Shown: piece after piece, positions 3,039 to 59,009 of the stretch
Layout: every line of letters starts with the position of its first letter
Numbering within the stretch: position 1 is the stretch's first letter
Origin: Alphaproteobacteria bacterium
GTDB lineage: Bacteria > Pseudomonadota > Alphaproteobacteria > MPNO01
NCBI GenBank assembly: GCA_963667285.1
Contig: OY763326.1
Location: 879,068 to 943,067, forward strand
DNA: 64,000 bases
Reading direction: 5' to 3'
The notes under the pieces: model-generated
Database searches by the model: none
What the model saw: the letters and a program-made list of their open reading frames with translations, nothing else
Told to the model about the DNA's origin: nothing
Position numbers and translations under genes: made by a program

Positions 3039-4037
3039 ATGAAAAGATACGCGTCACTTTCCATAGCCCTGATTGCGGGAATACTCGTTGCGTCAGGCCC
3101 CGGGCGGGCGGCCGACTACACCATGAAGATCGGCATGGTGACGGGCAACGATCAGCAGCACATCTACGCCCAGCGCTACGAGAAGGAACTCGAAAAGGTG
3201 ACGGGCGGCCGGATCGACGTCAAGGTGTTTCCACGCGGCCAGCTGGGCACGCCTGCGCGCCACATCGAAGGCCTCCAGGTGGGCACCGTCGAAGCCTTCA
3301 TCACGCCGTTCGATTTCTTCATCGGCGTCGATGCGCGTTACGGCGTGTTCAGCATCCCGGGCATGTTCAAGGACAAGCAGCACGCCTCGCGAACCATGCG
3401 CGACCCGGCGCTCAACAAGGAAATACTGTCGATCGCCGCGAACAAGGGCATCATCGGCATCACGGCGTTCCCGCACTCGGTGGCGCATTATTTCGGCAAG
3501 ACGCCGATCCTCTCGCTCGACGACTTCAAGGGCAAGAAGTTTCGCGTGAACGCAACGCCGGCGGAGCGCGAGCGGATGAACCGGTTCGGCGCCTCGGCGG
3601 TTCCGATGCCCCTCGGCGAGGTCGTGCCCTCGCTCCAGCGCGGCGTCATCGATGGCACCATGAGCGGGATCGCGATCTACGTGTTCCGCAAGTTCATCGA
3701 CCTGGGCAATGTGGTGACCGTGACCAACGATACGCTGATCATCAGCCAGGTGGCGGTGAGCAAGGCGTGGCTGTCGAGTCTGCCGGCCGATTTGCAAAAG
3801 GCCGTCGTCGACACCGGTCTCGGACTGCAGGACTGGATCAACGAGCATTCGGATGTGATGGAGGCCGGGCTGACCGAGAAGTGGCTTTCCATGGGCGGCA
3901 AGTTGCACAAGTTCAGTGCGTCGGACCAGGCCGAGCTCGAGAAGCGGCTCGCATCGGTGGGTGCCGATGTCACCAAGTCCGATCCGGCGGTCAGCGCGTT
4001 CTTCGAGAGGGTCAAGCAGGTCGGCGAGAAGTACTGA
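3039..4037 (+). CDS. dctP: TRAP transporter substrate-binding protein (DctP family)
   Basis: Signal peptide MKRYASLSIALIAGILVASGPGRA. DctP-like body. GGGAGG SD 8 nt upstream. Followed by dctQ and dctM. Confidence 0.85.
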   Translation: MKRYASLSIALIAGILVASGPGRAADYTMKIGMVTGNDQQHIYAQRYEKELEKVTGGRIDVKVFPRGQLGTPARHIEGLQVGTVEAFITPFDFFIGVDARYGVFSIPGMFKDKQHASRTMRDPALNKEILSIAANKGIIGITAFPHSVAHYFGKTPILSLDDFKGKKFRVNATPAERERMNRFGASAVPMPLGEVVPSLQRGVIDGTMSGIAIYVFRKFIDLGNVVTVTNDTLIISQVAVSKAWLSSLPADLQKAVVDTGLGLQDWINEHSDVMEAGLTEKWLSMGGKLHKFSASDQAELEKRLASVGADVTKSDPAVSAFFERVKQVGEKY

Positions 4038-4044
4038 GGAACGA

Positions 4045-4060
4045 CGGGTCCGCCGACCCG
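4045..4060 (+). terminator. GC-rich stem-loop (cgggtc-cgcc-gacccg) immediately after dctP, in the intercistronic region
   Basis: Perfect 6-bp stem with a 4-nt loop, read from the sequence. A second 8-bp stem (gcgagacc / ggtctcgc) lies at 4076-4106. The dctP-dctQ gap is unusually long (about 250 bp). Confidence 0.3.
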
Positions 4061-4283
4061 GGACGGCACGCGCGTGCGAGACCGGCCGCGTCGGCGCGGG
4101 TCTCGCCGGCGTGCCCGACCGGCGTGAAGAGCGCGGGCGTGGGGGCGCCCCGGGGGCGCCGCCTGCGGCGCGACGCGATTCCCATGTCCGCCACGCCGAT
4201 GCGGATTCGGGAGGCGATCCGGTGCGGAGGTCCCTGATTTCGTGTAGCTTCGCCGAGCCTGCCCACCGGTCGAGCGCTCCGGG

Positions 4284-4790
4284 ATGAACGCTGAAGGGCC
4301 CGAACGACACGTTGCCCGCGATGTGTTGAACGTCGCGCTCGACAAGCTGCCCATGACCGTCATCGGCATCCTGACCCTCGCCGGTCTCGCCATCAACTTC
4401 GCCAACGTCATCGCCCGGTATGTGTTCGGGTTCGCGTTTTTCTGGGCCGAGGAAATTCTCGTCTTCATCGTCGTCTGGAGCGTGTTCGTCGGCGCGATCG
4501 CCATCACCTACAGGGGCGGGCACCTGAAGATGAACCTGTTTTCGGACAATTTCACCGGGCCGTTGCGCGGGATCGTGAACGGGCTCGTCGTCCTCGGCTT
4601 CCTGTTCTCCGGTATCTTCGCCGTGATCCATTCATACCGGTTCGTCGCCATCATGGCGCGAAACGCGACCGTGAGCGTAACGGCCGAGATCCCGATGACG
4701 GTGCCGCACTCGGCCATCATGATCGGATTCGCGTTCATCGTGCTCGCGGTCATCGTCCGCATCCGGGCCTATCTTCGGGGCGACTTTTAG
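4284..4790 (+). CDS. dctQ: TRAP transporter small permease (DctQ family)
   Basis: Four-TM small protein of typical DctQ length and hydrophobic pattern. Sits between dctP and dctM. The true start may be an internal Met near 4353. Confidence 0.8.
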   Translation: MNAEGPERHVARDVLNVALDKLPMTVIGILTLAGLAINFANVIARYVFGFAFFWAEEILVFIVVWSVFVGAIAITYRGGHLKMNLFSDNFTGPLRGIVNGLVVLGFLFSGIFAVIHSYRFVAIMARNATVSVTAEIPMTVPHSAIMIGFAFIVLAVIVRIRAYLRGDF

Positions 4791-4831
4791 CCATGGCCGG
4801 TCGCTCCGGCGGGCGCGGGGGAGGCCGGTAA

Positions 4832-6103
4832 ATGGAGATCGTGATGGTGGGCATGCCCGTCGTCCTGCTCTTCCTGGGCTTTCCCATCTTCATCGTCCTG
4901 CTTGCAACCTCGGCCGTCGTCCTCCTGTTCTTCGCCAGCGTGCCGCCCATGGCGGCGCACCAGGTCATGTTCGGAAGTCTCGACAAGTTCGCGCTTCTGG
5001 CCGTCCCGTTTTTCATATTCACGGGCGAGCTGATGGCGCGGGGCGGCGTCTCCCGGCGGCTCATAGCCTGGGTCACCTCGATCGTCGGCGGCATCCGGGG
5101 CAGCCTGCCGATGACGGCGCTCGGCACGGCGACCATCTTCGGCGCCATCTCGGGAACGACCACGGCCACCGTCGCCGCCATCGGGGCGACCATCTATCAA
5201 CCGCTTCGCGACGCCGGCTATTCGGAGAAGTTCGCGTCCGGCATGCTCACCTCGGCGGGCGCCATCTCCAATATCATCCCGCCCTCCATCGCGATGATCC
5301 TCTACGGCATCGCGTCCGACGTATCCGTCATCCAGTTGTTCGCGGCCGGCATCGTCCCGGGGCTGCTCATGGCCGGCATGTTCGCCGCCTACATCTACTG
5401 GGTGGCCCGCAAGGAGGGCGTGCACGAAAGCGACCGGTTCAGCTGGCGGGGATTCGTCCTGGCGACCTGGCAGGGCGCCTGGGCGCTGGGCGCCCCGGTG
5501 ATCATCCTCGGCGGTATCTACAGCGGCGTCTTCTCGCCCACCGAGGCGGCGGGCGTCGCCGGGGTCTACGCCCTGGTCGTCACGCTTCTCATCTATCGGG
5601 AGGTGACGCTCCGCGAAGTGTTCGAGATCGCGTCCCGCTCGATGTACCTGACCGCCCAGATCTTCATCATCGTGGCGGTCGCGGGTGTCTATTCCTGGTT
5701 GCTGACCATCAGCGGCGGCGCGGCAGCCGCCACCGCGTTCATCGGCGATCTCGATATGCCGCCCTGGGCGGTGCTGTTGGTGATCAACATCTTCCTGCTG
5801 CTCGTGGGGACGGTTCTCGACACCGCGTCGGCGATTCTGGTCTTGACCCCGCTGCTTGCCGTCATCGCCAAGACCCTCGGGGTCGATCTGGTCCATTTCG
5901 GCATCATCGTCGTGGTCAATCTCACCATCGGCACCTTTACGCCGCCTTTCGGGCTCAACATTTTCGTCGGCCAAGCTGTGTTCAAGGTGCCGCTGGCCAA
6001 GCTCTATCCCGGACTCATGCCGTTCATCGTGCTCGCCATCGCGGCGCTGATGGTGATTACCTACGTGCCGTCGCTGTCGCTTTGGATCTTGAAGTTCATC
6101 TGA
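4832..6103 (+). CDS. dctM: TRAP transporter large permease (DctM family)
   Basis: 423-aa polytopic membrane protein with DctM-type motifs (GIYSGVFSPTEAAGV, TPPFGLNIFV). Confidence 0.9.
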   Translation: MEIVMVGMPVVLLFLGFPIFIVLLATSAVVLLFFASVPPMAAHQVMFGSLDKFALLAVPFFIFTGELMARGGVSRRLIAWVTSIVGGIRGSLPMTALGTATIFGAISGTTTATVAAIGATIYQPLRDAGYSEKFASGMLTSAGAISNIIPPSIAMILYGIASDVSVIQLFAAGIVPGLLMAGMFAAYIYWVARKEGVHESDRFSWRGFVLATWQGAWALGAPVIILGGIYSGVFSPTEAAGVAGVYALVVTLLIYREVTLREVFEIASRSMYLTAQIFIIVAVAGVYSWLLTISGGAAAATAFIGDLDMPPWAVLLVINIFLLLVGTVLDTASAILVLTPLLAVIAKTLGVDLVHFGIIVVVNLTIGTFTPPFGLNIFVGQAVFKVPLAKLYPGLMPFIVLAIAALMVITYVPSLSLWILKFI

Positions 6104-6430
6104 GGGAGGCCGGGAATTTGCTCCGCCGGCCAGCCGGACTGGCCGGCAACCCGTCAATGCAATAGCCTTCCCACCGGACCGGTCGCAGGAGGGCGGGTCG
6201 AGGCGGCATCCCATGCCCGCCATTCGCAGCCTCGCCATGGCGCTCGGCATTTTCCTGATGCTGGCGGCGCGTGCTGTGCACTCCCGGGCGGCGATCGCCG
6301 ACCGCGCCGTCGCCCGGGCCGACGATGCCTTCGAGCCCGATGACCGGTTCTTCGAAATCCGGAAGGGACGGCATGGACCGGGGAACCGCGACCCTCGCCG
6401 GAAGCTCATCCGCGCGGAAAGCATGTTCGG

Positions 6431-7579
6431 CTATCGGCACAGGGCGTTTCCGGTTTTCTGTACGGATTGGCGGCGCGGTTCCTTTTCCGTCAGCGTTTCG
6501 AGAAAGGCGACGAGATCGGCCCGTTGGCGCGCGCTCAGGTCCAGGCGGCGCAGAATCCGTTCGCCCGCGGCGTGCAGCCGTTCCTCGTCGATCGTCGAAT
6601 AGTGGCGGGCGACGTCGGCGAGCGTCTCGTGGCTGCCGGCATGCATGTAGGGCGCGGTGAGCGCCGCGTTGCGCAGGCCCGGCACCCGGAACTCGCCGAA
6701 ATTGCTCTGGCGCAGGCGGACATAGCGGGTCTTGGCGGCGGTGGAGCGCCGCGCATCGTCGTTGAAGCGGCCCAGCAGGGTGTAGGGGCTCCGGCGCAGC
6801 TTGCGGATGCCGCCGTGCCGGCCGGGATCGACCCGACCGGGCTCGACGAAATGCGGCACGCCGGCATCGGCGAACTCGCCGTTGGTGAAGGCCGGGCCGA
6901 AATGGCAGAAAGCGCAGTTGCCCCGGCCGACGAACAGGCGCAGGCCGCGCTTGGCGGCGGCGGGATAGCGGGCCCGGCCGGCCGCATCGCCGCGCGCGAG
7001 CGCGTCGCGGAAATCGTCGAACGGCGCGCGGCCGGTGACCCGGGTTTCCAGGAACGCCGCCAGCGCTTTGCCGAGATCGACGAATATCCGCGCGTCGTCC
7101 GCGCCGGGCGCCGCGCCGAAGGCGCGCCGGTATCCGCAGGAAAGCCGCCGGTCGGAGCGGACCAGCCGCGCCGCCCCGCCGGTGCCGACACCCATTTCGC
7201 GCGCATCGAGCAGGGGCCGCAGGTTTTGCGCCCACAGCGAGTCCTGCGCGCCGTCCCAGCCGAACCAGCGGTTGAACCCGAGGTTGAACAGGCCGGGCGC
7301 GTTGCGGTCGACGATCCGCTGCCCGCGGCTGCGCGGCAGGCCGTCGGTCCAGGCCCGGTCCGGCCTGTGGCAGGTCGCGCAGGAGACCGCGCCCGAGGTC
7401 GACAGGCGCGGTTCGAAAAACAGCGCCCGGCCGAAGGCGATGGCGGCGGGCTTGCCGGAAACCCGGTTGCTCGGATCGGGCAGCAAAGCCGGCGGCCACG
7501 GCCCGTGGCGCAGGATCCGGCGCTCTTCCTCGGCCGTGAAGTCGAGCGCCGGCGCCGGCGCGGCGACGCCGGAAAGCAT
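6431..7579 (-). CDS. Di-heme cytochrome c peroxidase / MauG-family protein
   Basis: Two CxxCH heme-binding motifs (CATCH, CAFCH). Size about 380 aa and architecture are typical of bacterial CCP/MauG. N-terminal signal-like segment. The start was chosen at an in-frame ATG; the ORF extends further upstream. Confidence 0.8.
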   Translation of the reverse strand: MLSGVAAPAPALDFTAEEERRILRHGPWPPALLPDPSNRVSGKPAAIAFGRALFFEPRLSTSGAVSCATCHRPDRAWTDGLPRSRGQRIVDRNAPGLFNLGFNRWFGWDGAQDSLWAQNLRPLLDAREMGVGTGGAARLVRSDRRLSCGYRRAFGAAPGADDARIFVDLGKALAAFLETRVTGRAPFDDFRDALARGDAAGRARYPAAAKRGLRLFVGRGNCAFCHFGPAFTNGEFADAGVPHFVEPGRVDPGRHGGIRKLRRSPYTLLGRFNDDARRSTAAKTRYVRLRQSNFGEFRVPGLRNAALTAPYMHAGSHETLADVARHYSTIDEERLHAAGERILRRLDLSARQRADLVAFLETLTEKEPRRQSVQKTGNALCR

Positions 7580-7641
7580 GCAGATTGCGATCGCAAGCTC
7601 CGGCAGCCGGGCGGCGACGGAGGCGCCTGGGCGCCGGGGCG

Positions 7642-8052
7642 TCACTCCGGCACCGTCTCGGCGGTCAGCTTGTCGCGGCCCGCCGCGCCGCGGACATCCA
7701 GAATCAGCTGCCAGCGCCCCGGCATGTGGAACATCAGGCCCTCGGCCTTTCCGGACGGGCCGTCCAGGGTCACCGCGGGCCGGTAGTTCATGCCGTGCCT
7801 GTGGTCCGGCATCCAGCCGCGCACCCCGACCCGGCCGACCGGCGGCCCGCAGAGATGGAAACGGATGGAGAAATGCGCGCCGACCGGGATTGGGGCGGGT
7901 TCCGATCGCCACCATGCGGTCCACGTCTCGCCGGCGATGCTCGCGCCGCCGGTCCAGCCCTCCGGACGGGGGCAGGCCGCCGCCTGGCCGGCCGCGAGCA
8001 CGAGCGCAAGCGCGGCCGCCAGCACCGGTCCGCCGAGGCGCCACCGGGCCAT
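7642..8052 (-). CDS. Small secreted His/Met/Trp-rich protein (possible metal, e.g. copper, chaperone)
   Basis: 136 aa. Signal peptide MARWRLGGPVLAAALALVLAAGQAAA. Mature part with WTAWW, HRHGM and MFHMPG motifs. Sandwiched between the Tat-amidohydrolase and the di-heme CCP. Only the 3' third of the 486-aa track ORF is plausible. Confidence 0.5.
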   Translation of the reverse strand: MARWRLGGPVLAAALALVLAAGQAAACPRPEGWTGGASIAGETWTAWWRSEPAPIPVGAHFSIRFHLCGPPVGRVGVRGWMPDHRHGMNYRPAVTLDGPSGKAEGLMFHMPGRWQLILDVRGAAGRDKLTAETVPE

Positions 8053-8057
8053 CGCGC

Positions 8058-8897
8058 CTAGCGCAGCTGCGCCAGATGCGGCCGGATCATCGCCTCGCCG
8101 TTGCGCCAGGCGATCTTTTCGGCGAGGCCGCGCGGCAGGTCGGTCAGCCATTGCCGGGTCCAGTCGGCGTGCTCGGCGACATAGTGCCAGCGTTCCGGCG
8201 TGAAGGTGTCGGTGCCGACCATGACGCGGTCGGGGAAGGCGGCGAACAGGCCGCGCCAGTCGTCGTCGACCCGGCCGCCATGGGCGTGTTCGCTGCGGAA
8301 GGCCAAATCGGTCCACAGATTCGCGTGCTTCCCGAGCATCGGGCCGACGATGTCCGGATCGACGAAGCCGGCATGGGCCCAGAGCACCCGCGCTTCCGGC
8401 CATTGGGCGAAGATGTCGTCGACCGCGCCGGCGTCCGAATGGGCGTGCAGGAGAAGATTGTGCCGCCGCGCGAGCTCGATCATGCGCCGCGGCACCGCCT
8501 TGTCGGTCTGCGCGGCGTAGAGGTGGAACTCGCCGACCGCGACCCACCTGAAACGCATCAGACGGTCCTCGAGAAAGTCGACCACCGACGGATCGTCGAC
8601 CCAGCTGTTGATCTCGCCGCGCCGGCGGTAGGGGCGCAGGCTGGGCAGGACAAGGCCCGGCGCCGCGGCGTGGAGCGCCCTTGTGCCGGCGTCGCCCGAG
8701 CTCGACACCAGCGCCCGCTTCAGCCCCGCCTTCCGCAGAATGGCGACGGCTTCGCTCGCGGAAAGGCGCTCTGCGGCGTCGTGGCTGAAATGGATATGGG
8801 CGTCGAAGATCGGCATCGGCGCGCCGGCGGCGCGGGCCGCCCCGGGCAGCAGCGCCGCGGCGGTCGAGGTCGCGAGAAAGCGACGGCGCGAAATCAT
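8058..8897 (-). CDS. Tat-exported amidohydrolase-2 family (TIM-barrel metal-dependent hydrolase)
   Basis: Twin-arginine signal MISRRRFLATSTAAALLPGAARAAG. IFDAHIHFSHD metal-binding start typical of the amidohydrolase_2 / ACMSD-like fold. Confidence 0.7.
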   Translation of the reverse strand: MISRRRFLATSTAAALLPGAARAAGAPMPIFDAHIHFSHDAAERLSASEAVAILRKAGLKRALVSSSGDAGTRALHAAAPGLVLPSLRPYRRRGEINSWVDDPSVVDFLEDRLMRFRWVAVGEFHLYAAQTDKAVPRRMIELARRHNLLLHAHSDAGAVDDIFAQWPEARVLWAHAGFVDPDIVGPMLGKHANLWTDLAFRSEHAHGGRVDDDWRGLFAAFPDRVMVGTDTFTPERWHYVAEHADWTRQWLTDLPRGLAEKIAWRNGEAMIRPHLAQLR

Positions 8898-9196
8898 GGC
8901 GTCCAGCCCCCCTTGAGCGGTCCGGATCGAATGTCGGTCGGGCGCTGTCCGGACATGCCCCCGATGCTGGACCACCGGTTCCGGGAAAATCCCGCTCATC
9001 CGCCTCGGGACCGGCATTCCGGCCGATCGAGCCGTGCGGACGAACCTCGTCGCAATCCGTTCGCCGCGCCTCACACCTGGATCGTGCATCCTCCGGGCCC
9101 AAAAGCCAAGAGGCGTTAAGACATTCGGCCGCAGCCGTTCAGCTTTCCAGTGTCAGGACAGGAGCCCGCCCGCGCCGATATGCTAGGCTCCGCCTC

Positions 9197-10642
9197 ATGG
9201 CCTTCGACGACCTCAGGGACTATCTCGCGGTGCTCGAGCAGCGCGGGCTGTTGCGCCGGGTGCGCGAGACGGTCGATCCGGAATGGGAGATCGGCTGTCT
9301 CGTCAAATGGGCGTTCCAGGGCCTGCCCGAGGACGAACGCTTCGGCCTGTTCTTCGAGCACGTCGCGGGCAGCGACATCCCGGCCGTGACCGGCGCGCTC
9401 GGCGCCTCGACCGAGGCCTATGCCACGGCGCTCGGGGTCGAGCCCGACGAGATCAACGCCAAATGGGAGCGCGCGCTGCGCAACCCGGTGCCGCCGGCCC
9501 GCGTCGACGAGGCGCCGTGCCAGGAGGTCGTGCACGAGGGCGGCGCGGTCGATCTGTCCCTGCTGCCGATCCCGGTCTGGACGCCGGGCAAGGACGCCGG
9601 GCGCTACATCACCACGATCGTCGCCACGAGCGACGCCGAGACCGGGGTCCAGAACCACGGCGTCTACCGCACCCTCGTTGCCGGCCGCGACCGGCTGGTC
9701 TGCAACCTCTCGCCGGGACGGCAGGGGCGGCTCTGCTGCGAGAGCCATCACGCGCTCGGCCGACCGGCGCCGATCGCCTTCGTCATCGGCGCCGAGCCCG
9801 CGGTCTATCTCGCGGCGGTCACCAACTTTCCCATCGGCGTCGACGAGGCGACGCTCGCCGGCGGCCTCAAGGAGGCGCCGGTCGAGACGGTGCGCGCGCG
9901 GACCGTCGACCTCGACGTGCCGGCCCGGGCCGAGATCGTGATCGAGGGGCTGGTCTATCCGGGCGAGACGGCGAAGGAGGGGCCGTTCGGCGAGTTCGCC
10001 GGCTATATGGGGCCGGTGTCCGACCGGCCGGTCGTGCGGGTCACCGCGATCACCCACCGCCGGGACCCGATCTTTTACGGCATCGCGAGCCAGATGCCGC
10101 CGAGCGAGAGCACGCTGATGCAGAGCCTCACCAACGCCGGCGCGCTACGCAAGGTGCTGCGCCACGACCTCGGCGAGCGCGGCGTGGAGGACGTCCATAT
10201 CGACCTCACCTTCGGCGGGCTGCTGGCGCATGCGATCGTCGCGATGCGCCCGCGCGTCGCGGGCGATGCGCAGCGGATCGGGCGGATCGTCGCCGCCATC
10301 GCGCCGGTCAAGCGGGTCACCGTGGTCGACCACAATGTCGACATCCGCGATCCGCTGCATCTCGACTGGGCGATGAACGCCCATTTCGACCCGGCGCGCG
10401 ATACCGTCCTGATCGATAACGTATTCGTGCCGATGTATATGGACCCGTCGGTCCGGGTGCGCGGCGGCAACACCGATCCCGGCAGCAAGATCGTCGTCGA
10501 CGCGACCCGCAGCATCGACGCGGGCGAGCTGTCGATCCCCTCGCGCCCGCTGATGGAGAAGGCGCTCGGAAGCTGGCGCAAGGCCGGGCTTCCGGAATTC
10601 GAGATCCCGAAACGGCTGGCCTTCCGTCTCGACGACGCGTGA
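9197..10642 (+). CDS. UbiD-family (prFMN-dependent) decarboxylase
   Basis: N-terminus MAFDDLRDYLAVLEQRGLLRRV is classic for UbiD. Full length 481 aa. No UbiX-like partner in the window. Confidence 0.85.
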   Translation: MAFDDLRDYLAVLEQRGLLRRVRETVDPEWEIGCLVKWAFQGLPEDERFGLFFEHVAGSDIPAVTGALGASTEAYATALGVEPDEINAKWERALRNPVPPARVDEAPCQEVVHEGGAVDLSLLPIPVWTPGKDAGRYITTIVATSDAETGVQNHGVYRTLVAGRDRLVCNLSPGRQGRLCCESHHALGRPAPIAFVIGAEPAVYLAAVTNFPIGVDEATLAGGLKEAPVETVRARTVDLDVPARAEIVIEGLVYPGETAKEGPFGEFAGYMGPVSDRPVVRVTAITHRRDPIFYGIASQMPPSESTLMQSLTNAGALRKVLRHDLGERGVEDVHIDLTFGGLLAHAIVAMRPRVAGDAQRIGRIVAAIAPVKRVTVVDHNVDIRDPLHLDWAMNAHFDPARDTVLIDNVFVPMYMDPSVRVRGGNTDPGSKIVVDATRSIDAGELSIPSRPLMEKALGSWRKAGLPEFEIPKRLAFRLDDA

Positions 10643-10709
10643 GACGCAGTTCCCGGCGCCGGCGCGGTTCTTCCGGTTTCCGCGCGGCGGTGCTCCCCGC
10701 CCCGCCGGT

Positions 10710-12029
10710 TCAGCCGCCGAAGAGCAGGGTCGGCAGGTAGAGCGCGGCAGGCGGGAACAACGCCACGACCGCCAGCACGATGAGCTGGCAGACCACGAAG
10801 GGCACCACCCCGCGGAACATCTCGCCGTAAGTGATTTCCGGCGGCGCAATCGCCCTCAGATAGTAGATGGAAGGGGCCACCGGCGGCGTGAGGTAGGACG
10901 TCTGGATGACGATGCAGACCATGATCCCGAACCATATCGGGTCGATGCCCACGCTCCTGATCAGGGGCGTGAAGATCGGCATGCAGATCAGCACGATCGA
11001 GACCCAGTCGAGGATGAAGCCCAGCACGAAGAACACCGCGAGCATCAGGATCGTCAGCTCGACGGGGCCCGGCTTGAAGGTATCGAGAAAGACGCGGATC
11101 AGGTCGTTGCCGCCATTGACCATGAAGATCGCGGAGAACATCACGCCGCCCAGCACGGTGAACATGACCATCACGTTCACCCGAATGGCGCGTTCGACGA
11201 CCTGCATGGCGACGTCCCAAGACATCCGCCCGTAGGCGACGATCAGCGCGACCGCACCGAACGCCCCGACGGCTGCGGCTTCGGTGGGCGAGGCGATGCC
11301 GGCAAGAATGGATCCGAGGACGGCGACGATCAGGATGATCGCCGGGACCAGCGCGACCACGGTAATGCGCAGCTTTTCGATAGTCGGGACGCGCATCTCT
11401 TCGGCCTCGACCGCCGGGCCATCCTCGGGCCTGAGATGGCAGCGCAGCGCGATGTAGACCATGAACAGAAAGGTCATCAGCAGGCCGGGGATCACGACGC
11501 CGGCGAACAGGTCGCCGATCGATTCCTCCACCACAGACCCGTAGACCACGACCACGACGGTCGGCGGGATGATGGTGCCGAGCGAACCGCCCGCGCAAAT
11601 CGTCCCCGAGATCAGATCGTGCTTGTAGCGCTGCTTGATCATCGGCGGGATGGCCATCATGCCGACAACCGTCTCGACCGCTCCGACGACGCCGGAGCAG
11701 GCGGCGAAAATGCTGCACATGGAAATCGACGTCAGGGCCAGCCCGCCGCGGAGCCTGCCGATCCACAGCTGGATCGCGTGGAACAGCCTGTCGGCGATGC
11801 CCGAGCGCTCCAGCGCGCTGCCCATGAAGACGAACAGGGGCAGTGCCGTCAGCACATAGTTCGACGACACGTCCTTCAGACGGCTGAACATCTGCGGGCC
11901 GAGCGTGTCGCCGAAAAACCAGAACCCGAACGCGAAGGAGAGCCCGATCATGCTGAACGCGACGGGTATGCCCATGAACACGAGAAGGAAGAGCGCGGGG
12001 AACATCCAGATTGCGGGAATGTCCAGCAT
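10710..12029 (-). CDS. dctM: TRAP transporter large permease (DctM family)
   Basis: 439-aa polytopic membrane protein with DctM motifs. Downstream of dctQ and dctP on the same strand. Confidence 0.9.
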   Translation of the reverse strand: MLDIPAIWMFPALFLLVFMGIPVAFSMIGLSFAFGFWFFGDTLGPQMFSRLKDVSSNYVLTALPLFVFMGSALERSGIADRLFHAIQLWIGRLRGGLALTSISMCSIFAACSGVVGAVETVVGMMAIPPMIKQRYKHDLISGTICAGGSLGTIIPPTVVVVVYGSVVEESIGDLFAGVVIPGLLMTFLFMVYIALRCHLRPEDGPAVEAEEMRVPTIEKLRITVVALVPAIILIVAVLGSILAGIASPTEAAAVGAFGAVALIVAYGRMSWDVAMQVVERAIRVNVMVMFTVLGGVMFSAIFMVNGGNDLIRVFLDTFKPGPVELTILMLAVFFVLGFILDWVSIVLICMPIFTPLIRSVGIDPIWFGIMVCIVIQTSYLTPPVAPSIYYLRAIAPPEITYGEMFRGVVPFVVCQLIVLAVVALFPPAALYLPTLLFGG

Positions 12030-12053
12030 GACCGCGCCGCGCCCCGCCGGCCC

Positions 12054-12587
12054 CTATTCCCGTTCGCCGATTGCGCGACGGCGGGCCGCAAGGACGCCGG
12101 CCCCGTGCCGCACGGTCTCCACGCAGGCCTGCAGCCAGAGCGCGAACAGACCGATGGCAAGCGCGGTATAGAACGGCCAGACTATCGGCGCCCACGCGCT
12201 CACGAGCTCTACCTCATCGGTGACGAATGCCGAATAGCTCCGCCGAAACGCGGCGTCGGCGACGATCCAGATCGCCGGAATGAACAGGCAGACATATGAC
12301 AGGATATTGGCGATGTGCTGCACCGGCATCGGCAGGCGGCTCGAAAGGACATCGATGCGGACATGCACATTCTTCTGCAGCCCGTAAGCGCCGGTCAGCA
12401 TGAACAGGGCCCCGTGCACCATGAAGGTGATGTCGAAGGCCCAGATCGTCGGTGCGTTGAACGCGTAGCGGGCGACGACCTCGTACAGCCCGACAAGGAT
12501 AAGCGCCGGGAAGAGAGCGAACCCGGCGTAGCTCGCGAGCCGCGCCGGGGCGTCGGCCCATTTGTCTGCCAGAGAGAGGATCCCCAT
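12054..12587 (-). CDS. dctQ: TRAP transporter small permease (DctQ family)
   Basis: Start taken at MGILSLADKW (ATG at 12585-12587). Four predicted TM segments. The upstream part of the track ORF is a non-coding artefact. Confidence 0.8.
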   Translation of the reverse strand: MGILSLADKWADAPARLASYAGFALFPALILVGLYEVVARYAFNAPTIWAFDITFMVHGALFMLTGAYGLQKNVHVRIDVLSSRLPMPVQHIANILSYVCLFIPAIWIVADAAFRRSYSAFVTDEVELVSAWAPIVWPFYTALAIGLFALWLQACVETVRHGAGVLAARRRAIGERE

Positions 12588-12645
12588 CGGTCGCCCAGGG
12601 GGCGGGCGGGGCTGGCGCCTCACCCGCCCGACCGCGGCCTGGCGG

Positions 12646-13707
12646 CTATTGCCGGTCGATGACGAGATACTTGGAGTTCTTCGACCAGGACTCCTGGAAG
12701 GCGTAGAAGCTCTTGGCAAACTTCTCCATCCATGGATTTCCCTTGGCGTTTTGCTCCTTCACCTTGGCGTCGGCCCATTCCCGTCCGGCCTTGCGCACGG
12801 CGTCGATGAACTCGGGCGACAGTTCGACCAGCTCGTTTGCCGGCGAGGCATCCATCTCGGCCATCGCCCTGGCGTTGTTGACGTTGAGCGTCGCATAGGA
12901 GCGGATCATCACCGAGTCGCAGACCATCTGCATCTTGGCCTGGATATCCCTCGGCAGCGCATCCCAACTCTCTTTTCGCATCAGAATTTCGTAGAGGCCG
13001 CCCGGTGCGTGAATGCCGGGGTAGATGACGTATTTGGCGACCTTCTGAAAGCCGAGGGAGTAGTTTCCGTAGGGATCGAGATATTCGGCGCCGTCCACGG
13101 CCTTGCGCTCGAGCATGGTGAAGACCTCGGGCCCGGGTACCAGCGTCGGCGCGGCGCCCAGCTTGCGCATGACGAACGTGTTCGCCCCCGCCGTGCGGTA
13201 GCGGAACCCCTTGAGGTCGGCGAGCGACTGCACCTTCTTGTGAGAATTCGCAAACAGCTCCGAACCGATGATGCCGCAGAACATGCCGTGATAGCCGAGG
13301 CTGTGGCGATAGTCGGTCCACAATTGCTCGCCGCCGCCGCCCAGCACCCAAAGGAGCTTGGCGTGGGGCCCCATCCCGCCCGGGATGTCGCCGATGAACG
13401 CCGAGGCGGGCAGTTCGTTGATCTCGAAACCGGGGTAATGATAGGCCATGTCGGCCCGGCGATCCTTCACCGCCCGGTGCGCCTCGAAGATGCTCGCCAG
13501 AACGAAGGCGCCGTAAGGCTTGATCACGACGGCGCCGTCGGTCGCGATCCTGACCTTCTCGGTGAACGCTTGCGGATAGAGCTTCCAGGTCACGGTGCCT
13601 TCGGGCACGAAGCTGGTCAATTTGAACTGGAACTTGGACTGCGCGGCAGCGTCCGCCGTCACGGCGAGCGAAAGCGCGCCCGTCAATGCGATCAGTGTCT
13701 TGCGCAT
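12646..13707 (-). CDS. dctP: TRAP transporter substrate-binding protein (DctP family)
   Basis: Start at MRKTLIALTGALSLAVTADAAAQ (signal peptide). DctP-like body. Confidence 0.85.
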   Translation of the reverse strand: MRKTLIALTGALSLAVTADAAAQSKFQFKLTSFVPEGTVTWKLYPQAFTEKVRIATDGAVVIKPYGAFVLASIFEAHRAVKDRRADMAYHYPGFEINELPASAFIGDIPGGMGPHAKLLWVLGGGGEQLWTDYRHSLGYHGMFCGIIGSELFANSHKKVQSLADLKGFRYRTAGANTFVMRKLGAAPTLVPGPEVFTMLERKAVDGAEYLDPYGNYSLGFQKVAKYVIYPGIHAPGGLYEILMRKESWDALPRDIQAKMQMVCDSVMIRSYATLNVNNARAMAEMDASPANELVELSPEFIDAVRKAGREWADAKVKEQNAKGNPWMEKFAKSFYAFQESWSKNSKYLVIDRQ

Positions 13708-13849
13708 GGCCACACCCTCCCCTTCTTGTATCTTGCCGGTCTGACGCCGACTGGCCGGCATCCGGTTGCAAGAATCGGTCGGAACGGGTCCGCGGCCACG
13801 ACGGCGTCCGGGGGATTGTACGGCAGTCGCCGCACCCGGTCGACCGGGA

Positions 13850-16430: not shown

Positions 16431-16506
16431 CGACCGTTGCACCGGGCGCCGGGCTATCGTCCGCCCGCTGTAGCCGACGCGCGGTGCGGCCGCGCAGGCT
16501 TCGTTC

Positions 16507-18131: not shown

Positions 18132-18148
18132 ACGGCGCAGGCGGGTCA

Positions 18149-53986: not shown

Positions 53987-55060
53987 TCAGCTTTCGACCG
54001 GATGGTTCCAGCCGTGGCGGTCCTCGATGCGGCCGTACTGGATGCCGGTAAGCTCGTCGTGGAGGGATTTGGTGAGCGGCGCTTCGCCCGCCCGCCGGGG
54101 AATCAGGTCGCGCCGCCTGAAGTTCAGCCGGCCGACCGGGAGCACGACCGCGGCGGTTCCGGTGACGAACACCTCTTCGAGCGCGCCGCCGTCGCACGCA
54201 CCGACGATTTCGTCGATCGCAACTTCCCGCTCCTCGACGGCGATGCCGCGGTCGGCCAGCAGGGCGATGATGCTCTCCCGGGTCACGCCGGGAAGGATCG
54301 CGCCGTTCAGCGCCGGCGTGACGACGCGGTCGCCGAGCTTGAAGAACACGTTCATCAACCCGGCCTCCTCGACATAGCGGTGCTCGCTGCCGTCGAGCCA
54401 GAGAACCTGGTCGAACCCGTCAGCGCGCGCCAGCCGGCCGGCGGAAAACGTCGTCGCGTAGTTGGCCGAGGTCTTGGCCTCGCCCACCCCGCCATGCGGG
54501 GCGGTCCGCGCGAAACGATCCTCGACCTTGAGCGACAGGCCGCTATCGCCGCTCCTGAAATACGCCCCGACCGGACAGGTCATGACGATGAACCGGTAGG
54601 CGTTCGACGGCCGGACCTCGAGATGCGATTCCGCGCTGAAAACGATCGGCCGGATATACAGCCCGTGGCCCGGCCGGTCGGAAATCCAGCCGCGGTCGAT
54701 AGCGACCAGCCGGGTCACCGCCGCGACGAAGTCGTCCTCGTCGATCTCGGGAATGCACATGCGCCGGCACGAAAGCCGCAGCCGCCTGGCGTTGCGGTCG
54801 GGACGGAAGACGCGGACCCTTCCGTCGACGCCGACAAACGCCTTCAGCCCCTCGAACGCCATCTGGGCGTAGTGCAGCGTCATCGCGCCCGGTTCGATGG
54901 GGATCGGGCCGTAGGGGACGATCTCCGGATCGCGCCACGCGCCGTCCCGCCACGCCATGGCGAACATGTGGTCGGAAAAGACCTCGCCGAATACCAGCCG
55001 GTCGAGATCGAGATCCCCCAGCCGGCTCCGTTCGGTCAGGCGGACAACCAACCCGTCCAT
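53987..55060 (-). CDS. ilvE: Class IV aminotransferase (branched-chain amino-acid aminotransferase-like)
   Basis: FSDHMF...LHYAQMAFEGLKAF BCAT signature. 357 aa. The gene symbol is tentative. Confidence 0.8.
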   Translation of the reverse strand: MDGLVVRLTERSRLGDLDLDRLVFGEVFSDHMFAMAWRDGAWRDPEIVPYGPIPIEPGAMTLHYAQMAFEGLKAFVGVDGRVRVFRPDRNARRLRLSCRRMCIPEIDEDDFVAAVTRLVAIDRGWISDRPGHGLYIRPIVFSAESHLEVRPSNAYRFIVMTCPVGAYFRSGDSGLSLKVEDRFARTAPHGGVGEAKTSANYATTFSAGRLARADGFDQVLWLDGSEHRYVEEAGLMNVFFKLGDRVVTPALNGAILPGVTRESIIALLADRGIAVEEREVAIDEIVGACDGGALEEVFVTGTAAVVLPVGRLNFRRRDLIPRRAGEAPLTKSLHDELTGIQYGRIEDRHGWNHPVES

Positions 55061-55099: not shown

Positions 55100-56089
55100 T
55101 CAGGACAGCAAGTCTATCGTTTTCCCCACCCCGGCCGCCCGGGCCCGCCGGTAAATCGACCACGCGAGCGGCATGTCGACACTCCCGAGGCCGGTCGGTA
55201 TCGCCATGATGCGGTCCCGATCGCCATGGCGGCCGGGGCGGTTCCCGAGGACGATATCGCCGAAGGAGGTGAAATCGTCCGGCAGCTCCAGATCGGGGCG
55301 CCGCTGCGCCGCGGCGGCCCGCAGCCCCGCGTCGTTGTCGGCGACCAGCAGGTCGAGGACTTCGAACGCCTCGTCTTCCCAGGCGGTCAGCACATCGAGC
55401 GGTATGGCCAGCATGCCGGGCGTCCACCAGCCGGCCTTGAGCGGCCGTTCCGATCCTTGCGGTATCGACGAGACGACGATGTCCATGCCGCGAACCGCAT
55501 CCTCGGCGGTGTCCACCGGGGTCAGGGTCCAGCTCCCCTCCTCCGCCATGACGGCGCAGAATTTCTCGCGGCTCGCCGGCGTGCGCGATGCGACGAAGAC
55601 GTCCTTGAGGGTGGGGAACAGGGCCGACAGCACCCTGAGAGACCACATTCCGAGGCCGCCGCACCCGACCAGGCCGAGACGCACCGGGTCGCGGCGCGCG
55701 CAGTGCCTGGCGGCGACCGCGCCGCAGGCCGCCGTCCGCACGAAGGTGATCCACATGCCTTCCATGATCGCCACGGGCAGCCCGTGTTCGGGATCGTTGA
55801 GGACGATCAGCCCGGAGGAGTCGGGAAACCCGCGCTCGGTGTTGCCGGGGTAGTAGGAGATCCACTTCATCCCGAGCGCCTTTTCCCCGGCGACCCAGGC
55901 CGGCATGGCGTGCAGGAAGCTGTGCGGACGATCGGGATGCACGCCCGCCTTCACCGGCACCTCGACCTCGCCCCTCCCGTCCATGCGGTAGGTGTGTTCG
56001 ACCATCTCGACGATGTCCGCGAGCGGCGGCGCCACCGCCGCGATATCGGCGCTGTCGAGCAGGAGCTGTTCGGGGAACCGCGCTGTCAT
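55100..56089 (-). CDS. Ornithine cyclodeaminase / mu-crystallin family protein
   Basis: 329 aa. Rossmann LGLVGCGGLGMW. OCD-family N-terminal pattern. Confidence 0.85.
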   Translation of the reverse strand: MTARFPEQLLLDSADIAAVAPPLADIVEMVEHTYRMDGRGEVEVPVKAGVHPDRPHSFLHAMPAWVAGEKALGMKWISYYPGNTERGFPDSSGLIVLNDPEHGLPVAIMEGMWITFVRTAACGAVAARHCARRDPVRLGLVGCGGLGMWSLRVLSALFPTLKDVFVASRTPASREKFCAVMAEEGSWTLTPVDTAEDAVRGMDIVVSSIPQGSERPLKAGWWTPGMLAIPLDVLTAWEDEAFEVLDLLVADNDAGLRAAAAQRRPDLELPDDFTSFGDIVLGNRPGRHGDRDRIMAIPTGLGSVDMPLAWSIYRRARAAGVGKTIDLLS

Positions 56090-56104: not shown

Positions 56105-57421
56105 TCACCGGGTCATCAGGCCCGGCAGGGACAGGGAAATCTCCGGGAAGGCCATGATCAGGGCCATGGCGATGACGTCGCAGATCAGGAAGGGAACCGC
56201 CGCCCGGATGATGTGGCCCATGGTCGTGTCGGGCGGCGACACGCCCTTCATGACGTAGAGCAGGATGCCGTAAGGCGGGGTGGTCTGCGCCATCTCGATG
56301 TTGATCAGGAACAGGACGAGGAACCAGATCGGGTCGTAGCCCAGCTGCTTCACCACGGGCAGGAAGACCGGCAGGGTGATCAACATCAGGGGCACGCCCG
56401 AGATGAAGCCGCCGAGGATCAGGATCACGAACTGCATCATGACGATGAGCACCAGCGGCGCCACCGGGAGCCCGACGGCCCATTGCACGAGATACCGGTT
56501 CGCGCCGGTGAACGCGAGCACCTGGGAATAGGCCTGGGCGGCGGCGAGGATGATCAGCACCATCACCGAAATTCGCAGCGTGCTCTCGATCGCCTCGCGC
56601 GTGACCTTCCGGTTGAGCCCGCCATAGCAGGCGGCGAGGACGAATGAGCCGGCGGTGCCGAGCGCCGCCGCTTCGGTCGGCGTGGCGACGCCGAGAAAGA
56701 TCAGCCCGACGACGAGGAACACGATGAGCCCGAGCGGCAGGACGTATTTGACGGTGAGCGAAATCTTCAGCCCGAGCGGCACCCTCTCGATCGCGTAGCG
56801 GGGCGCGAGGTCGGGCTGCAGATAGCAGCGGACGATGATGTAGGAGGCATAGAGCACCGCCATCAGAATGCCCGGCAGGACGATCGCGATCAGCAGCTTG
56901 CCGACCGACACCTCGGCCAGCACCGCCAGGATCACGCCGAGCCCGCTCGGCGGGATCATGATCGCGAGCCCGCCGCTGCCGAGCAGCGGGCCGATGCTCA
57001 TGGGTTTCTTGTAGCCCCGCGATTCGAGCTCGGGCGCGAGCGTCGCGCCGAGCATCGCGGTGGTCCCGATGCTGGCGCCGCTGAGCGAGGCGAGCACCGT
57101 CCCCGACGCCACGGCGAGCAGCGACAGGCGCCCGGGCAGGTTTCCGAGCCATTTGTCGAGCGCGTCGATCATGCGCGCCGCCACACCCGCCCGGAACATC
57201 ACCTCGCCCATCAGCACAAACAGCGTTATCGGCAGCAGGACGAAGACCGTCAGGCTGCCATAGGCGCTGTTGACCATCTGTTCGAGACCGGCCTCGCCGC
57301 CCATCAGCAGGAACATGCCCACGATGTTGACCGCGAAGAACGCGAAGACCACCGGAACCCCGACGAACAGCAGGGTGAAGAGCGCCCCCAGGATCAGCGC
57401 GATGGACCAGTACCATTCCAC
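56105..57421 (-). CDS. dctM: TRAP transporter large permease (DctM family)
   Basis: 438 aa. DctM motifs (TPTEAAALGTAG, TPPYGILLYV). Confidence 0.9.
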   Translation of the reverse strand: MEWYWSIALILGALFTLLFVGVPVVFAFFAVNIVGMFLLMGGEAGLEQMVNSAYGSLTVFVLLPITLFVLMGEVMFRAGVAARMIDALDKWLGNLPGRLSLLAVASGTVLASLSGASIGTTAMLGATLAPELESRGYKKPMSIGPLLGSGGLAIMIPPSGLGVILAVLAEVSVGKLLIAIVLPGILMAVLYASYIIVRCYLQPDLAPRYAIERVPLGLKISLTVKYVLPLGLIVFLVVGLIFLGVATPTEAAALGTAGSFVLAACYGGLNRKVTREAIESTLRISVMVLIILAAAQAYSQVLAFTGANRYLVQWAVGLPVAPLVLIVMMQFVILILGGFISGVPLMLITLPVFLPVVKQLGYDPIWFLVLFLINIEMAQTTPPYGILLYVMKGVSPPDTTMGHIIRAAVPFLICDVIAMALIMAFPEISLSLPGLMTR

Positions 57422-57445
57422 GCCGGTTTCCTCCCGCTGCGCGCG

Positions 57446-57958
57446 CTAGAGGTCGACTTGCATGTCGCCGGACCGCTGCTCGGCGGGGGACCGTATCAGC
57501 CTCCAGGAATCCCTCACCAATTGCACCAGGAAGACGGCGCTTCCCAGGGGGATAACCGCAAGCACGATGAAGATGGGAACTTCCTCGACCTTGAAATAGT
57601 CGTATTCGTTGGTCAGGAATTTCTCCCACGTGACCTTGCTGCCCTGCCAGACCAGCACCAGGCAGACGCAGATCCCGAGCAGCAGTCCGAAGAGCTCGGA
57701 GGCGAGGCGGGTCCGCTTCCCGAACCGCGTCACCAGGATGTCGAGGCGGACATGGCCGCCCCGCTGCTGCAGCCAGGCGGCGCCGAGGAACGCGATGAAG
57801 AGCAGGCTCCACTCGTTGAGCGCGATCACCCAGCGGATGGACTCGCCGAAGAAATAGCGCGAGCCGACATCGGCGGACACGCTGACGACCTGGAAGATCA
57901 GCAGCGCGCCGGCGATCCAGGCGAAGGCGTTGACGATCCTGTCGAATACCGCCCCCAA
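57446..57958 (-). CDS. dctQ: TRAP transporter small permease (DctQ family)
   Basis: 170 aa, four TM segments. Confidence 0.8.
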   Translation of the reverse strand: MGAVFDRIVNAFAWIAGALLIFQVVSVSADVGSRYFFGESIRWVIALNEWSLLFIAFLGAAWLQQRGGHVRLDILVTRFGKRTRLASELFGLLLGICVCLVLVWQGSKVTWEKFLTNEYDYFKVEEVPIFIVLAVIPLGSAVFLVQLVRDSWRLIRSPAEQRSGDMQVDL

Positions 57959-58016
57959 ACGGTGCCTCCGCCCGAGCGTTGCCTGGATTGCCGGAAAGCC
58001 CCGCGATGACGGGGCG

Positions 58017-59009
58017 TCAGCGCGTGATCATCTTGCGGATCTTCGCGTACTGCTCGGGCGCCAGTCGCTTCTTCATGACCGCCCAGCGCGATTCGTTGGC
58101 TACGTCCACCCATTTCTTCGCTTCGTCGGCGGGCAGGCCGATGAACTTCACGCCGCTTTTCTGCAACTTGGCCATCTCGGCCGCCTTCAGCTCCTTGCCC
58201 TTCGGAACCATGAAGCGTTCCATCTCGGCCTGTTCGTCGAGCATCAACTTCTGCGCGGCGGCGGACAGCTTGTTCCACTTGCCGCGGTTGATGAAGCTGA
58301 ACACCGTGTGCGCCGGCCAGAACGCGTCGGCCATCGCGCAGCAGATGACTTCGTGAATGCCGATATTCGTTGCCGCCAGCGGAAACGGCGCCGCCTGCAC
58401 GACGCCGCGCTCGAGCCCGGGATAGATCTCGGAAATCTTCATGTGGATCGGCGACGCGCCGATCGCCTTCATGAAGGGATCGTAACCCGAGTGGGACCGG
58501 ATCTTGACGTTCTTCAGATCCGCCATCCGGTTGATCGGCTTCTTGGAGAAAATATGGAAACCCACATCGGTCGCGGTGCGTCCCATGACCTTGATGCCGA
58601 TCTTCTTGTGCGCTTCGTCGAGAAGATCGATGTATCCGACCTCGCGCTCTTCCTTCGGCGATATCTCCGACATGCCCACGGTACCGATCTCCGGCACCAG
58701 CGCCTGATGGATGGTGAAGGTCATCACCATGTCGGAGATGCCCTTGCTCGTCGCGTTCATCTGGTCGCGCAGCGGGACGACCGACGGCCCGCCGATATAG
58801 TCGAGCTTGAGGACGCCCTTGCCGGCCTCGTTCACCCGCTCGATGAAGCGCCTGAACATCACCATGCTGGGGTAGTTTCGATCCGGCTGCGAGAATGTGA
58901 CGACGCGCAGCGTCGTCTCGGCCGCCGTGGCCGGGAGAGCGAAACAGACCGCCGCCGCCGCACATGCGGAAAGCGCCGCTATACGCATCGTGAGGTAAGC
59001 CGATTTCAT
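58017..59009 (-). CDS. dctP: TRAP transporter substrate-binding protein (DctP family)
   Basis: Start likely MKSAYLTMRIAALSACAAAAVCFALPATAAE (signal peptide). An alternative start lies at 59042. Confidence 0.75.
   Translation of the reverse strand: MKSAYLTMRIAALSACAAAAVCFALPATAAETTLRVVTFSQPDRNYPSMVMFRRFIERVNEAGKGVLKLDYIGGPSVVPLRDQMNATSKGISDMVMTFTIHQALVPEIGTVGMSEISPKEEREVGYIDLLDEAHKKIGIKVMGRTATDVGFHIFSKKPINRMADLKNVKIRSHSGYDPFMKAIGASPIHMKISEIYPGLERGVVQAAPFPLAATNIGIHEVICCAMADAFWPAHTVFSFINRGKWNKLSAAAQKLMLDEQAEMERFMVPKGKELKAAEMAKLQKSGVKFIGLPADEAKKWVDVANESRWAVMKKRLAPEQYAKIRKMITR

Follow-up and report, generated by a model that had tools for sequence, protein, structure and literature searches.

In SiaPQM of Haemophilus influenzae, a TRAP (tripartite ATP-independent periplasmic) transporter, the membrane subunits DctQ and DctM are fused. 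TarPQM of Rhodopseudomonas palustris is a TRAP system for the uptake of lignin-derived phenylpropanoids, and its genes are located within an aromatic-acid degradation operon (PMC3610893). In the ectoine degradation cluster, the TRAP transporter UehABC or TeaABC is combined with a creatinase-fold M24 hydrolase (DoeA/EutD) and a protein of the ornithine cyclodeaminase/mu-crystallin family (OCD), EutC (PMC3187862). Here we compare with these systems a 64-kb stretch of the chromosome of an uncultivated alphaproteobacterium (contig OY763326.1, positions 879,068 to 943,067; hereafter the window), which carries four TRAP gene triplets, numbered sets 1 to 4 from its left end. The original prediction, made from the bare sequence, had read the region as a single carboxylate-scavenging island. 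We consider it probable that the window is instead a catabolic neighbourhood with four independent, anciently diverged TRAP transporters, each the uptake step of a separate module. Gene identities, the divergence of the sets, operon geometry, gain and loss of genes between strains, and the synteny of sets 3 and 4 across genera were all observed directly, while what each transporter carries is inferred from its genomic context and nearest solved relatives.

The count of four complete DctP/DctQ/DctM triplets in the original prediction was right, and the outer limits of all four sets agreed with it to the nucleotide. The G+C content is 63-72% throughout the window, and raw lists of open reading frames were dominated by spurious frames; genes were therefore chosen by third-position G+C (GC3) plus GC1>GC2, start codons were refined by ribosome-binding sites and by gene calls on near-identical public contigs, and approximately 55 genes were annotated with Pfam and NCBIfam. 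Set 1 is on the forward strand and consists of DctP1 (3039-4037; Pfam DctP, 4.6e-50), the small membrane subunit DctQ1 (4284-4790; Pfam DctQ, 1.6e-23) and the large membrane subunit DctM1 (4832-6103; Pfam DctM, 1.6e-106). The other three sets are on the reverse strand: DctP2 (12646-13707; 2.8e-30), DctQ2 (12054-12587; 5.4e-19; a 177-aa gene call from a near-identical contig, L010) and DctM2 (10710-12029; 2.6e-77); DctP3 (44710-45738), DctQ3 (44135-44629; 8.6e-23) and DctM3 (42822-44123; 4.1e-109; a 433-aa gene call from the same contig, L001); and DctP4 (58017-59009; 8.1e-26; with a strong ribosome-binding site before the start at 59009), DctQ4 (57446-57958; 1.6e-26) and DctM4 (56105-57421; 7.4e-72). 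In all four triplets the DctP (PF03480), DctQ (PF04290) and DctM (PF06808) models scored well above their gathering scores, with E-values of 8e-26 to 5e-50 for DctP and 7e-72 to 4e-109 for DctM. Gene order was P-Q-M in every set, with gaps of 11-41 nt between Q and M; all 12 reading frames were intact, with the high third-position G+C that marks coding regions in this DNA, and every DctP carried, as judged by eye, a hydrophobic N-terminus that resembles a signal peptide and closes with an AxA-type motif. Each set therefore presents the features of a DctP-type TRAP transporter (TC 2.A.56), namely a PF03480 protein with an export-signal-like leader, adjoining DctQ and DctM genes, and an arginine equivalent to R147 of SiaP. 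The four sets are predicted to be binding-protein-dependent, ion-gradient-driven importers, in which each periplasmic DctP would pass an acidic solute to its own DctQM membrane pair. Both their transporter family and the way in which they are arranged are well known, and the layout is ordinary for TRAP-rich bacteria.

Pairwise local identity among the four sets was 20-39% for DctP, 23-38% for DctQ and 27-33% for DctM, whereas each DctP had closer relatives in other organisms (50-77% identity) than within the window. The sets are therefore ancient paralogues, clearly divergent as had been claimed, and recent duplication was rejected on these values. Binding pockets were compared by aligning the four DctPs to H. 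influenzae SiaP, with a reference sequence 100% identical to PDB 2CEX. The R147-equivalent arginine was kept in the motifs GKKFR (DctP1), GFRYR (DctP2), GLKIR (DctP3) and NVKIR (DctP4), and the equivalents of R127, N187, F170, N10 and D49 were conserved in none of the four and mostly differed among them. The nearest solved structure also differed for each protein: 4NN3 (2.4e-30) for DctP1, the TakP/ketoacid/lactate group for DctP2, 7NQG (1.4e-90) for DctP3 and 4MNC (2.5e-27) for DctP4. Near-identical pockets, which would have undone the earlier idea of a distinct ligand for each DctP, were thus not found, and that idea is reasonable given the differing pocket positions and nearest structures. 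The likeness to SiaPQM lies in the tripartite architecture and in the shared arginine; the differences are the other pocket residues and the Q and M subunits, which are separate genes in the window.

For genomic comparison, we used a 337-kb long-read metagenome contig (ENA ERZ18545484 ptg000855l; loci L001, L005 and L010) 99.0-99.4% identical to the window, a 114-kb contig of a sister strain (L011; 98-99%), and an Alphaproteobacteria metagenome-assembled genome (MAG), OZ219866.1 (L003), which among species-level genomes of the GTDB set came nearest to the window, at 88-93% nucleotide identity. Identity to the window was also 98-99% for several further metagenome contigs and for the MAG contig GCA_001753035.1. 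A known plasmid was ruled out, as megablast of window positions 40-60 kb against plasmids matched only gltB, at 74-78%. tblastn of DctP1, DctP2 and DctP4 against plasmids gave only remote matches (36% identity or less), which were too distant for context, and homologues from metagenomes and genomes were therefore used for these proteins.

The best-supported assignment is that of set 3, which would import a phenylpropanoid-like aromatic acid into an operon of MhpB-like and Rieske dioxygenases and a short-chain dehydrogenase/reductase (SDR), feeding an oxygenolytic Hca/Mhp-like route. All genes from 47520 down to at least 37940 are on the reverse strand. The first is an MhpB-like, LigB-type extradiol dioxygenase (46570-47520), which with 327.6 bits exceeded the cut-off (291) of NF009910, the NCBIfam model for 3-carboxyethylcatechol 2,3-dioxygenase. 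It is followed by an EthD-domain protein (45795-46520; Pfam EthD, NCBIfam TIGR02118; 79% identical in OZ219866.1), dctP3, dctQ3 and dctM3, and then by genes assigned by Pfam to a Rieske oxygenase alpha subunit (41446-42756), its beta subunit (40939-41439), a LigXa-type Rieske oxygenase (39402-40625), a SnoaL-like protein (38824-39357) and the SDR (37940-38704), after which there are more small genes. Intergenic gaps from the LigB-type gene through Rieske beta are 6-80 nt. The earlier placement of this set beside Rieske dioxygenases was thus borne out, within an operon that also holds the MhpB-like dioxygenase. The Rieske alpha and beta subunits probably form a two-subunit dioxygenase for carboxylated aromatics: their nearest NCBIfam models were those of benzoate, 3-phenylpropionate/cinnamate and anthranilate dioxygenases, although the scores stayed far under the equivalog cut-offs. 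The entire operon was syntenic in OZ219866.1 at 79-96% amino-acid identity, and the block from Rieske to SDR at 88-95%. The closest homologues of DctM3 on plasmids were likewise located in aromatic clusters: in Bosea next to MarR, a LigM-like aminomethyltransferase, MetF and 4-hydroxybenzoate 3-monooxygenase (PobA), and in Sulfitobacter next to MarR, a reductase of VanB type and the two subunits, alpha and beta, of a Rieske oxygenase.

DctP3 matched 7NQG with 307 bits, approximately 52%, or about half, of the residues being identical over 318 (query residues 23-340 against chain residues 5-320), and its GLKIRP motif aligned to GLKVRP of 7NQG. The next matches in the Protein Data Bank (PDB) were 7NSW, 7NRR and 7NR2, at approximately 1e-34; the 7NQG/7NSW series reportedly comes from a study of TarP proteins that bind phenylpropanoids (Bisson et al. 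2022). These four structures represent the TarP group of R. palustris with its homologues from Sagittula and Chromohalobacter. Its close full-length similarity to a structurally characterised member places DctP3 among TarP-type aromatic-acid binding proteins. The comparison with TarPQM thus rests on likeness to 7NQG across the mature protein and on the location of the genes inside an aromatic-acid degradation operon, like tarPQM. R. palustris uses a CoA-dependent side-chain shortening route, whereas the enzymes neighbouring set 3 are oxygenolytic, and about half of the DctP3 residues differ, so that the preferred aromatic acid may differ as well.

Set 4 is embedded in a module of hydrolases and an OCD enzyme. 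The reverse-strand order is an M24 hydrolase of creatinase/prolidase fold (59236-60387; Pfam Peptidase_M24 and Creatinase_N), dctP4, dctQ4, dctM4, the OCD-family enzyme (55100-56089; Pfam OCD_Mu_crystall, 2.1e-43) and an IlvE-type class IV aminotransferase (53987-55060), with gaps of 226, 58, 24, 15 and 39 nt. Divergent from the M24 gene, on the forward strand, is a tandem pair of prolidase-like amidohydrolases of cog1228 type (60519-61772 and 61742-62965), for both of which the best model was the Caulobacter-type Xaa-Pro dipeptidase NF051886 (353 and 344 bits, below the cut-off of 500). The M24 hydrolase scored far below the DoeA and PepQ cut-offs, and the OCD enzyme reached no NCBIfam equivalog cut-off. 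The M24, OCD and aminotransferase partners named in the original prediction are all present; the aminotransferase, however, scored as a branched-chain enzyme (406.7 bits against a cut-off of 307), gltB lies 186 nt beyond it, followed by gltD, and the two amidohydrolases had been missed. In an Alphaproteobacteria MAG (L014; DctP4 58% identical), genes for MarR, two amidohydrolases, M24, DctPQM and OCD are co-directional, and an IlvE-like gene (60% identical) adjoins them on the opposite strand. In Rhodoplanes sp. Z2-YC6860 (L016; DctP4 50% identical), genes for amidohydrolase, class IV aminotransferase, M24, OCD, DctPQM and amidohydrolase run in one direction behind a divergent LysR gene; the aminotransferase inside this operon is only 26% identical to that of the window. 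Across these two loci, the orthologous partners showed 56-74% (amidohydrolases), 63-69% (M24) and 50-56% (OCD) identity. Judged by gene content and identity, two further lineages of Alphaproteobacteria have conserved the set 4 module, with the two amidohydrolases as conserved partners. Set 4 would then be the importer of a module formed by M24, OCD and the two amidohydrolases, and less certainly by the aminotransferase, which may be co-transcribed with it. The enzyme families point to a small amide-bonded or cyclic amino-acid derivative as its substrate, for example an Xaa-Pro, N-acyl-proline-like or cyclic amidine compound.

Our full-text literature search for a TRAP transporter together with an M24 creatinase-fold hydrolase and an OCD protein found only the ectoine degradation cluster, which shares this combination of families with set 4. 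The M24 hydrolase of set 4 scored 82.9 bits against a cut-off of 575 for DoeA (NF038259) and 65.9 against 613 for EutD (TIGR02993), and its OCD protein 88 bits against 471.65 for EutC (TIGR02992). The UehA structure 3FXB was not among the PDB matches of DctP4 at E<=1e-5, though it was among those of DctP1. Members of the DoeB, DoeC, DoeD, EutA and EutB families were found neither near set 4 in Pfam scans nor in the homologous loci of the MAG and Rhodoplanes, and two prolidase-like amidohydrolases stand in place of these Doe/Eut partners. An ectoine cluster was thus rejected for set 4 by NCBIfam cut-offs, PDB neighbours and absent accessory families. It is possible, if short of probable, that set 4 is the uptake arm of an undescribed catabolic pathway conserved across alphaproteobacterial genera, in a lineage that also gains and loses 'enzyme plus DctPQM' cassettes. 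Such a pathway would be built like the ectoine cluster without being orthologous to it, and would presumably act on a different cyclic or amide-bonded amino-acid derivative; Xaa-Pro or N-acyl-proline compounds, D-amino-acid dipeptides or another compatible-solute-like molecule may be candidates. This conserved and uncharacterised module is the newest element of the region.

Set 2 belongs to a 4.8-kb cassette (10668-15475, reverse strand) that comprises a promoter region, an amidohydrolase gene, dctP2, dctQ2 and dctM2, in that order, with gaps of 142, 58 and 24 nt between the genes, and that is absent from the sister contig. There, the alignment covered window positions 2273-10668 and then jumped to 15475-20939, at 98-99% identity, so that the UbiD and alpha/beta hydrolase genes become neighbours. 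The indel junctions (15793-15812 of the sister contig) share approximately 10 nt of microhomology. An imperfect 26-nt inverted repeat (73% complementary) is located just inside both junctions (10681-10706 and 15422-15447); it may be due to chance, and we do not claim it as a mobile-element end, as DNA so rich in G+C often contains such pairs (32 in 5.4 kb here). The amidohydrolase (13850-15304; Pfam Amidohydro_1, 2.4e-49; a 484-aa gene call from L010) is of ATZ/TRZ or deaminase type, and its best NCBIfam models were 5'-deoxyadenosine, 8-oxoguanine and guanine deaminases and chlorohydrolases, all below cut-off. The UbiD-family decarboxylase (9197-10642, forward strand), which had been proposed as a second partner of this set, is convergent with dctM2 and is retained in the sister contig, and it was rejected as a partner on both grounds. 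The functional unit is therefore the amidohydrolase plus the TRAP transporter, without UbiD; unlike the two amidohydrolases at set 4, UbiD is not a conserved partner. Set 2 would thus act as a self-contained uptake unit with its deaminase/chlorohydrolase-type enzyme, gained or lost between strains.

The relatives of DctP2 have varied surroundings. Beside a homologue 77% identical to it there is a divergent amidohydrolase gene whose product is only 33% identical to that of the window. Homologues with 69% identity (L017/L018, 5018-8991) are located between an IS21 IstB gene and DUF1989 and amidase genes, near a TrwC relaxase gene, and homologues with 54% identity (L019/L020) are orphan dctP genes beside a Rieske alpha subunit gene, among transposases. 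These contexts suggest that DctP2-type systems belong to a flexible gene pool that may travel on mobile elements. The best solved relatives of DctP2 all come from the subfamily of TakP and of 2-oxoacid and lactate binders: 7UG8 (a 'ketoacid-binding protein'), 4YZZ/4YIC, 2ZZV, which binds lactate in Thermus, and TakP itself (2HZK/2HZL), at 3e-29 to 2e-25. Identity to them is low, and the partner in the window is a deaminase/chlorohydrolase-type amidohydrolase, not an oxo-acid enzyme. The ligand of DctP2 is possibly an amino- or N-substituted organic acid, perhaps of 2-oxo or 2-hydroxy acid type. The JGI label on homologues of DctP2 is 'mannitol/chloroaromatic compound' type.

To the left of the cassette, the block 6431-10642 is conserved with or without it. 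This block contains a MauG/MbnH-like di-haem peroxidase gene (6431-7579, reverse strand), then a gene for a 140-aa protein of no assigned family, and an Amidohydro_2 gene with an ACMSD-type decarboxylase fold (8058-9089, reverse strand), divergent from the UbiD gene. No UbiX-like domain was found among the window genes scanned with Pfam.

At set 1, the neighbouring XRE-cupin regulator named in the original prediction is present, whereas the enzyme neighbourhood has been replaced by the scar of an insertion sequence. The regulator gene (2298-2900, reverse strand; Pfam HTH_3 and Cupin_2, with a ribosome-binding site before the start at 2900) combines an XRE-type helix-turn-helix with a cupin domain and is divergent from dctP1; its product is likely the sensor and regulator of set 1. 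The right part of an IS21-family element occupies 1-1682 on the forward strand, with the IstA C-terminus at 1-846, 64% identical to annotated istA of Mesorhizobium/Bradyrhizobium, and IstB at 843-1682 (Pfam IstB_IS21, 3.9e-64). The element ends before approximately 1900, where homology to the sister contig starts, and the first 63 codons of an amidase gene remain at 1901-2089 on the reverse strand (tblastn with the amidase of the 337-kb contig, 98.4% identity over residues 1-63). In the 337-kb contig and in the sister contig, the XRE-cupin gene is followed on the same strand by the gene of a 504-aa amidase, then by nitrile hydratase (alpha, beta) and cobalt-transporter (cbtAB) genes. The IS21 event has thus truncated the amidase gene and removed the enzyme neighbours of set 1 in this strain. 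A nitrile-to-acid pathway was lost from, or moved in, this strain.

More distant relatives of set 1 give a different context. In three loci (L022-L024), homologues of DctP1 (55-57% identity) are accompanied by an XRE-cupin gene 42% identical to that of the window, and in L022-L025 the genes linked to the DctQ (59%) and DctM (74%) homologues encode molybdenum hydroxylases of the xanthine-dehydrogenase family, a dioxygenase with glyoxalase fold and a hydrolase of the FAA family. In L022-L024, the gene of a 772-aa molybdenum-hydroxylase large subunit lies between dctP and dctQ, the place where the window has an unusually long gap of 246 nt (4038-4283); tblastn for a gene remnant in this gap was negative. 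The nearest structure to DctP1, Desal_2161 (4NN3), is orotate-bound (PMC11668362), and together with the molybdenum-hydroxylase context this suggests an N-heteroaromatic or aromatic carboxylate as a likely type of ligand. An N-heterocyclic carboxylate would fit the homologue context, and 4NN3 is the best solved relative of DctP1; it is nevertheless distant, with a lysine at the equivalent of the second arginine (PMC11668362), where DctP1 has A/H at the SiaP R127 position. In the proposed mechanism, set 1 would be controlled by the divergent XRE-cupin regulator, its enzyme neighbours having been removed by the IS21 event.

The view of the four sets as carboxylate importers deserves separate consideration. 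The R147-equivalent arginine in all four DctPs fits acidic ligands, as had been assumed, and to that extent the carboxylate label holds. It is drawn from one arginine, however, and isethionate, a sulfonate, and glycerol phosphate are also bound by this arginine pair in TRAP binding proteins elsewhere (PMC11668362). At least one of the four could therefore import a sulfonate, a phosphate ester or a non-acid, or be non-functional; NMT1-type ABC and luciferase-like monooxygenase genes nearby would be in line with the former, and the loss of the amidase neighbour with set 1 as a decaying remnant after the IS21 event. We regard this as unlikely, though the best surviving of the alternatives, since all 12 frames are intact with coding-type third-position G+C, set 1 is conserved at 98-99% in three independent assemblies, and the nearest solved relatives of the four DctPs mostly bind carboxylates.

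A single acquired or functionally coordinated unit of organic-acid import, as the island reading implies, is less probable still. In its favour, the TRAP density of the window is approximately three times the densest plasmid averages, an IS21 element lies at the left edge, and the gaps between sets are filled by other catabolic genes and an ABC importer. DctM homologues numbered 4-5 on Sulfitobacter plasmids of approximately 200 kb, 9 on a 690-kb Tistrella plasmid and 15 on a 1.8-Mb Halomonas replicon, and one Sulfitobacter plasmid had two TRAP triplets within 18 kb. At the densest of these averages (one per approximately 48 kb), a Poisson model gives 1.3 expected sets per 64 kb and P(>=4) of approximately 0.05; TRAP-rich genomes carry one set per approximately 160 kb, a rate at which P(>=4) is approximately 7e-4 per window. 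The density is thus a moderate local enrichment and not unprecedented, as TRAP-dense replicons and adjacent triplets with separate regulators are common in Alphaproteobacteria.

Against the island, the window had no tRNA, Pfam scans of its genes found no integrase domain, and its G+C content is even. Sets 3 and 4 are separated by core genes (gltB, gltD and ilvE), gltBD and the set 3 block are syntenic in a different species (OZ219866.1), and the four sets have four different regulators or operon structures. The combination of flanking tRNA or integrase genes, direct repeats, atypical composition and block-wise absence, by which genomic islands are recognised, was not seen in a view that reached 5 kb beyond each side. 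Strain variation was instead cassette by cassette: between near-identical strains only the 4.8-kb set 2 cassette and one IS21 element vary. In OZ219866.1, an extra 5.6-kb cassette (3309-8900 of locus L003) with Amidohydro_2, Rieske alpha, DctP, DctQ and DctM genes separates gltD from the LigB-type gene; at this site the window has approximately 150 bp of intergenic DNA (~47637-47785). Variation of an 'enzyme plus DctPQM' cassette at an intergenic site was therefore found in two independent cases. A better description of the region is a catabolic neighbourhood of the chromosome in which self-contained 'enzyme plus TRAP' cassettes are accumulated and shed, and the partial data already suggest a separate phylogenetic history for each module. 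The extra cassette is a fifth TRAP module in this lineage.

An amplification within the lineage that gave rise to four redundant paralogues, overlapping in specificity, is hardly credible despite the known redundancy of aromatic-acid uptake by CouPSTU and TarPQM in R. palustris (PMC3610893), given DctP and DctM identities as low as those above, closer DctP relatives in other organisms, and pockets that differ apart from the shared arginine.

Several points weigh against the reading of four separate modules, each with its own uptake step. Every ligand assignment is drawn from genomic context and from 25-52% identity to solved proteins. In this strain, set 1 lacks an enzyme partner and shows the long gap between dctP1 and dctQ1, so that its current role is doubtful. 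The pairing of DctP2 with an amidohydrolase is not conserved across homologues, and the IlvE-type aminotransferase may be a housekeeping enzyme next to gltBD, which makes its role in the set 4 module uncertain. Finally, 7NQG, to which DctP3 was compared, is what we take to be R. palustris TarP with its ligand.

For annotation, the window provides four TRAP binding proteins that had not been characterised, the context of each offering a usable hint at the ligand, and three corrections of context: UbiD is unlinked from set 2, the partners of set 1 were lost to IS21, and two amidohydrolases are added to set 4. Set 3 is a plausible importer for engineering the uptake of lignin-derived aromatics, and ligand screening could reasonably be aimed at the set 4 module, which is conserved in three alphaproteobacterial lineages or more. 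How these bacteria adjust their catabolic breadth is shown by the 'enzyme plus TRAP' cassettes that strains gain and lose. These findings leave the general picture of TRAP transporters as it was.

Between sets 2 and 3, a separate catabolic cluster occupies 19797-25780. In this cluster, translational coupling joins the A and B genes of a hydantoinase/oxoprolinase (19797-23712) to a Rieske oxygenase gene of 'homotrimeric ring hydroxylase' type (23709-24923), which is followed by a gene of the NAD-dependent epimerase/dehydratase family (extended SDR). A CmcJ/NvfI-family oxidoreductase gene (18210-19475, reverse strand) lies upstream of the cluster. Two NMT1-type ABC importers were also found, one at 28756-33570 and one beyond the right edge of the window (1492-5963 in L005 of the 337-kb contig), each beside a luciferase-like flavin monooxygenase gene (28756-29907, and 63047 to past 64000, respectively). 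The combination of an NMT1-type ABC importer with a luciferase-like monooxygenase is typical of the use of sulfonates or similar organosulfur and organonitrogen compounds. With these ABC importers present, the region is therefore rich in importers generally, and not only in TRAP transporters.

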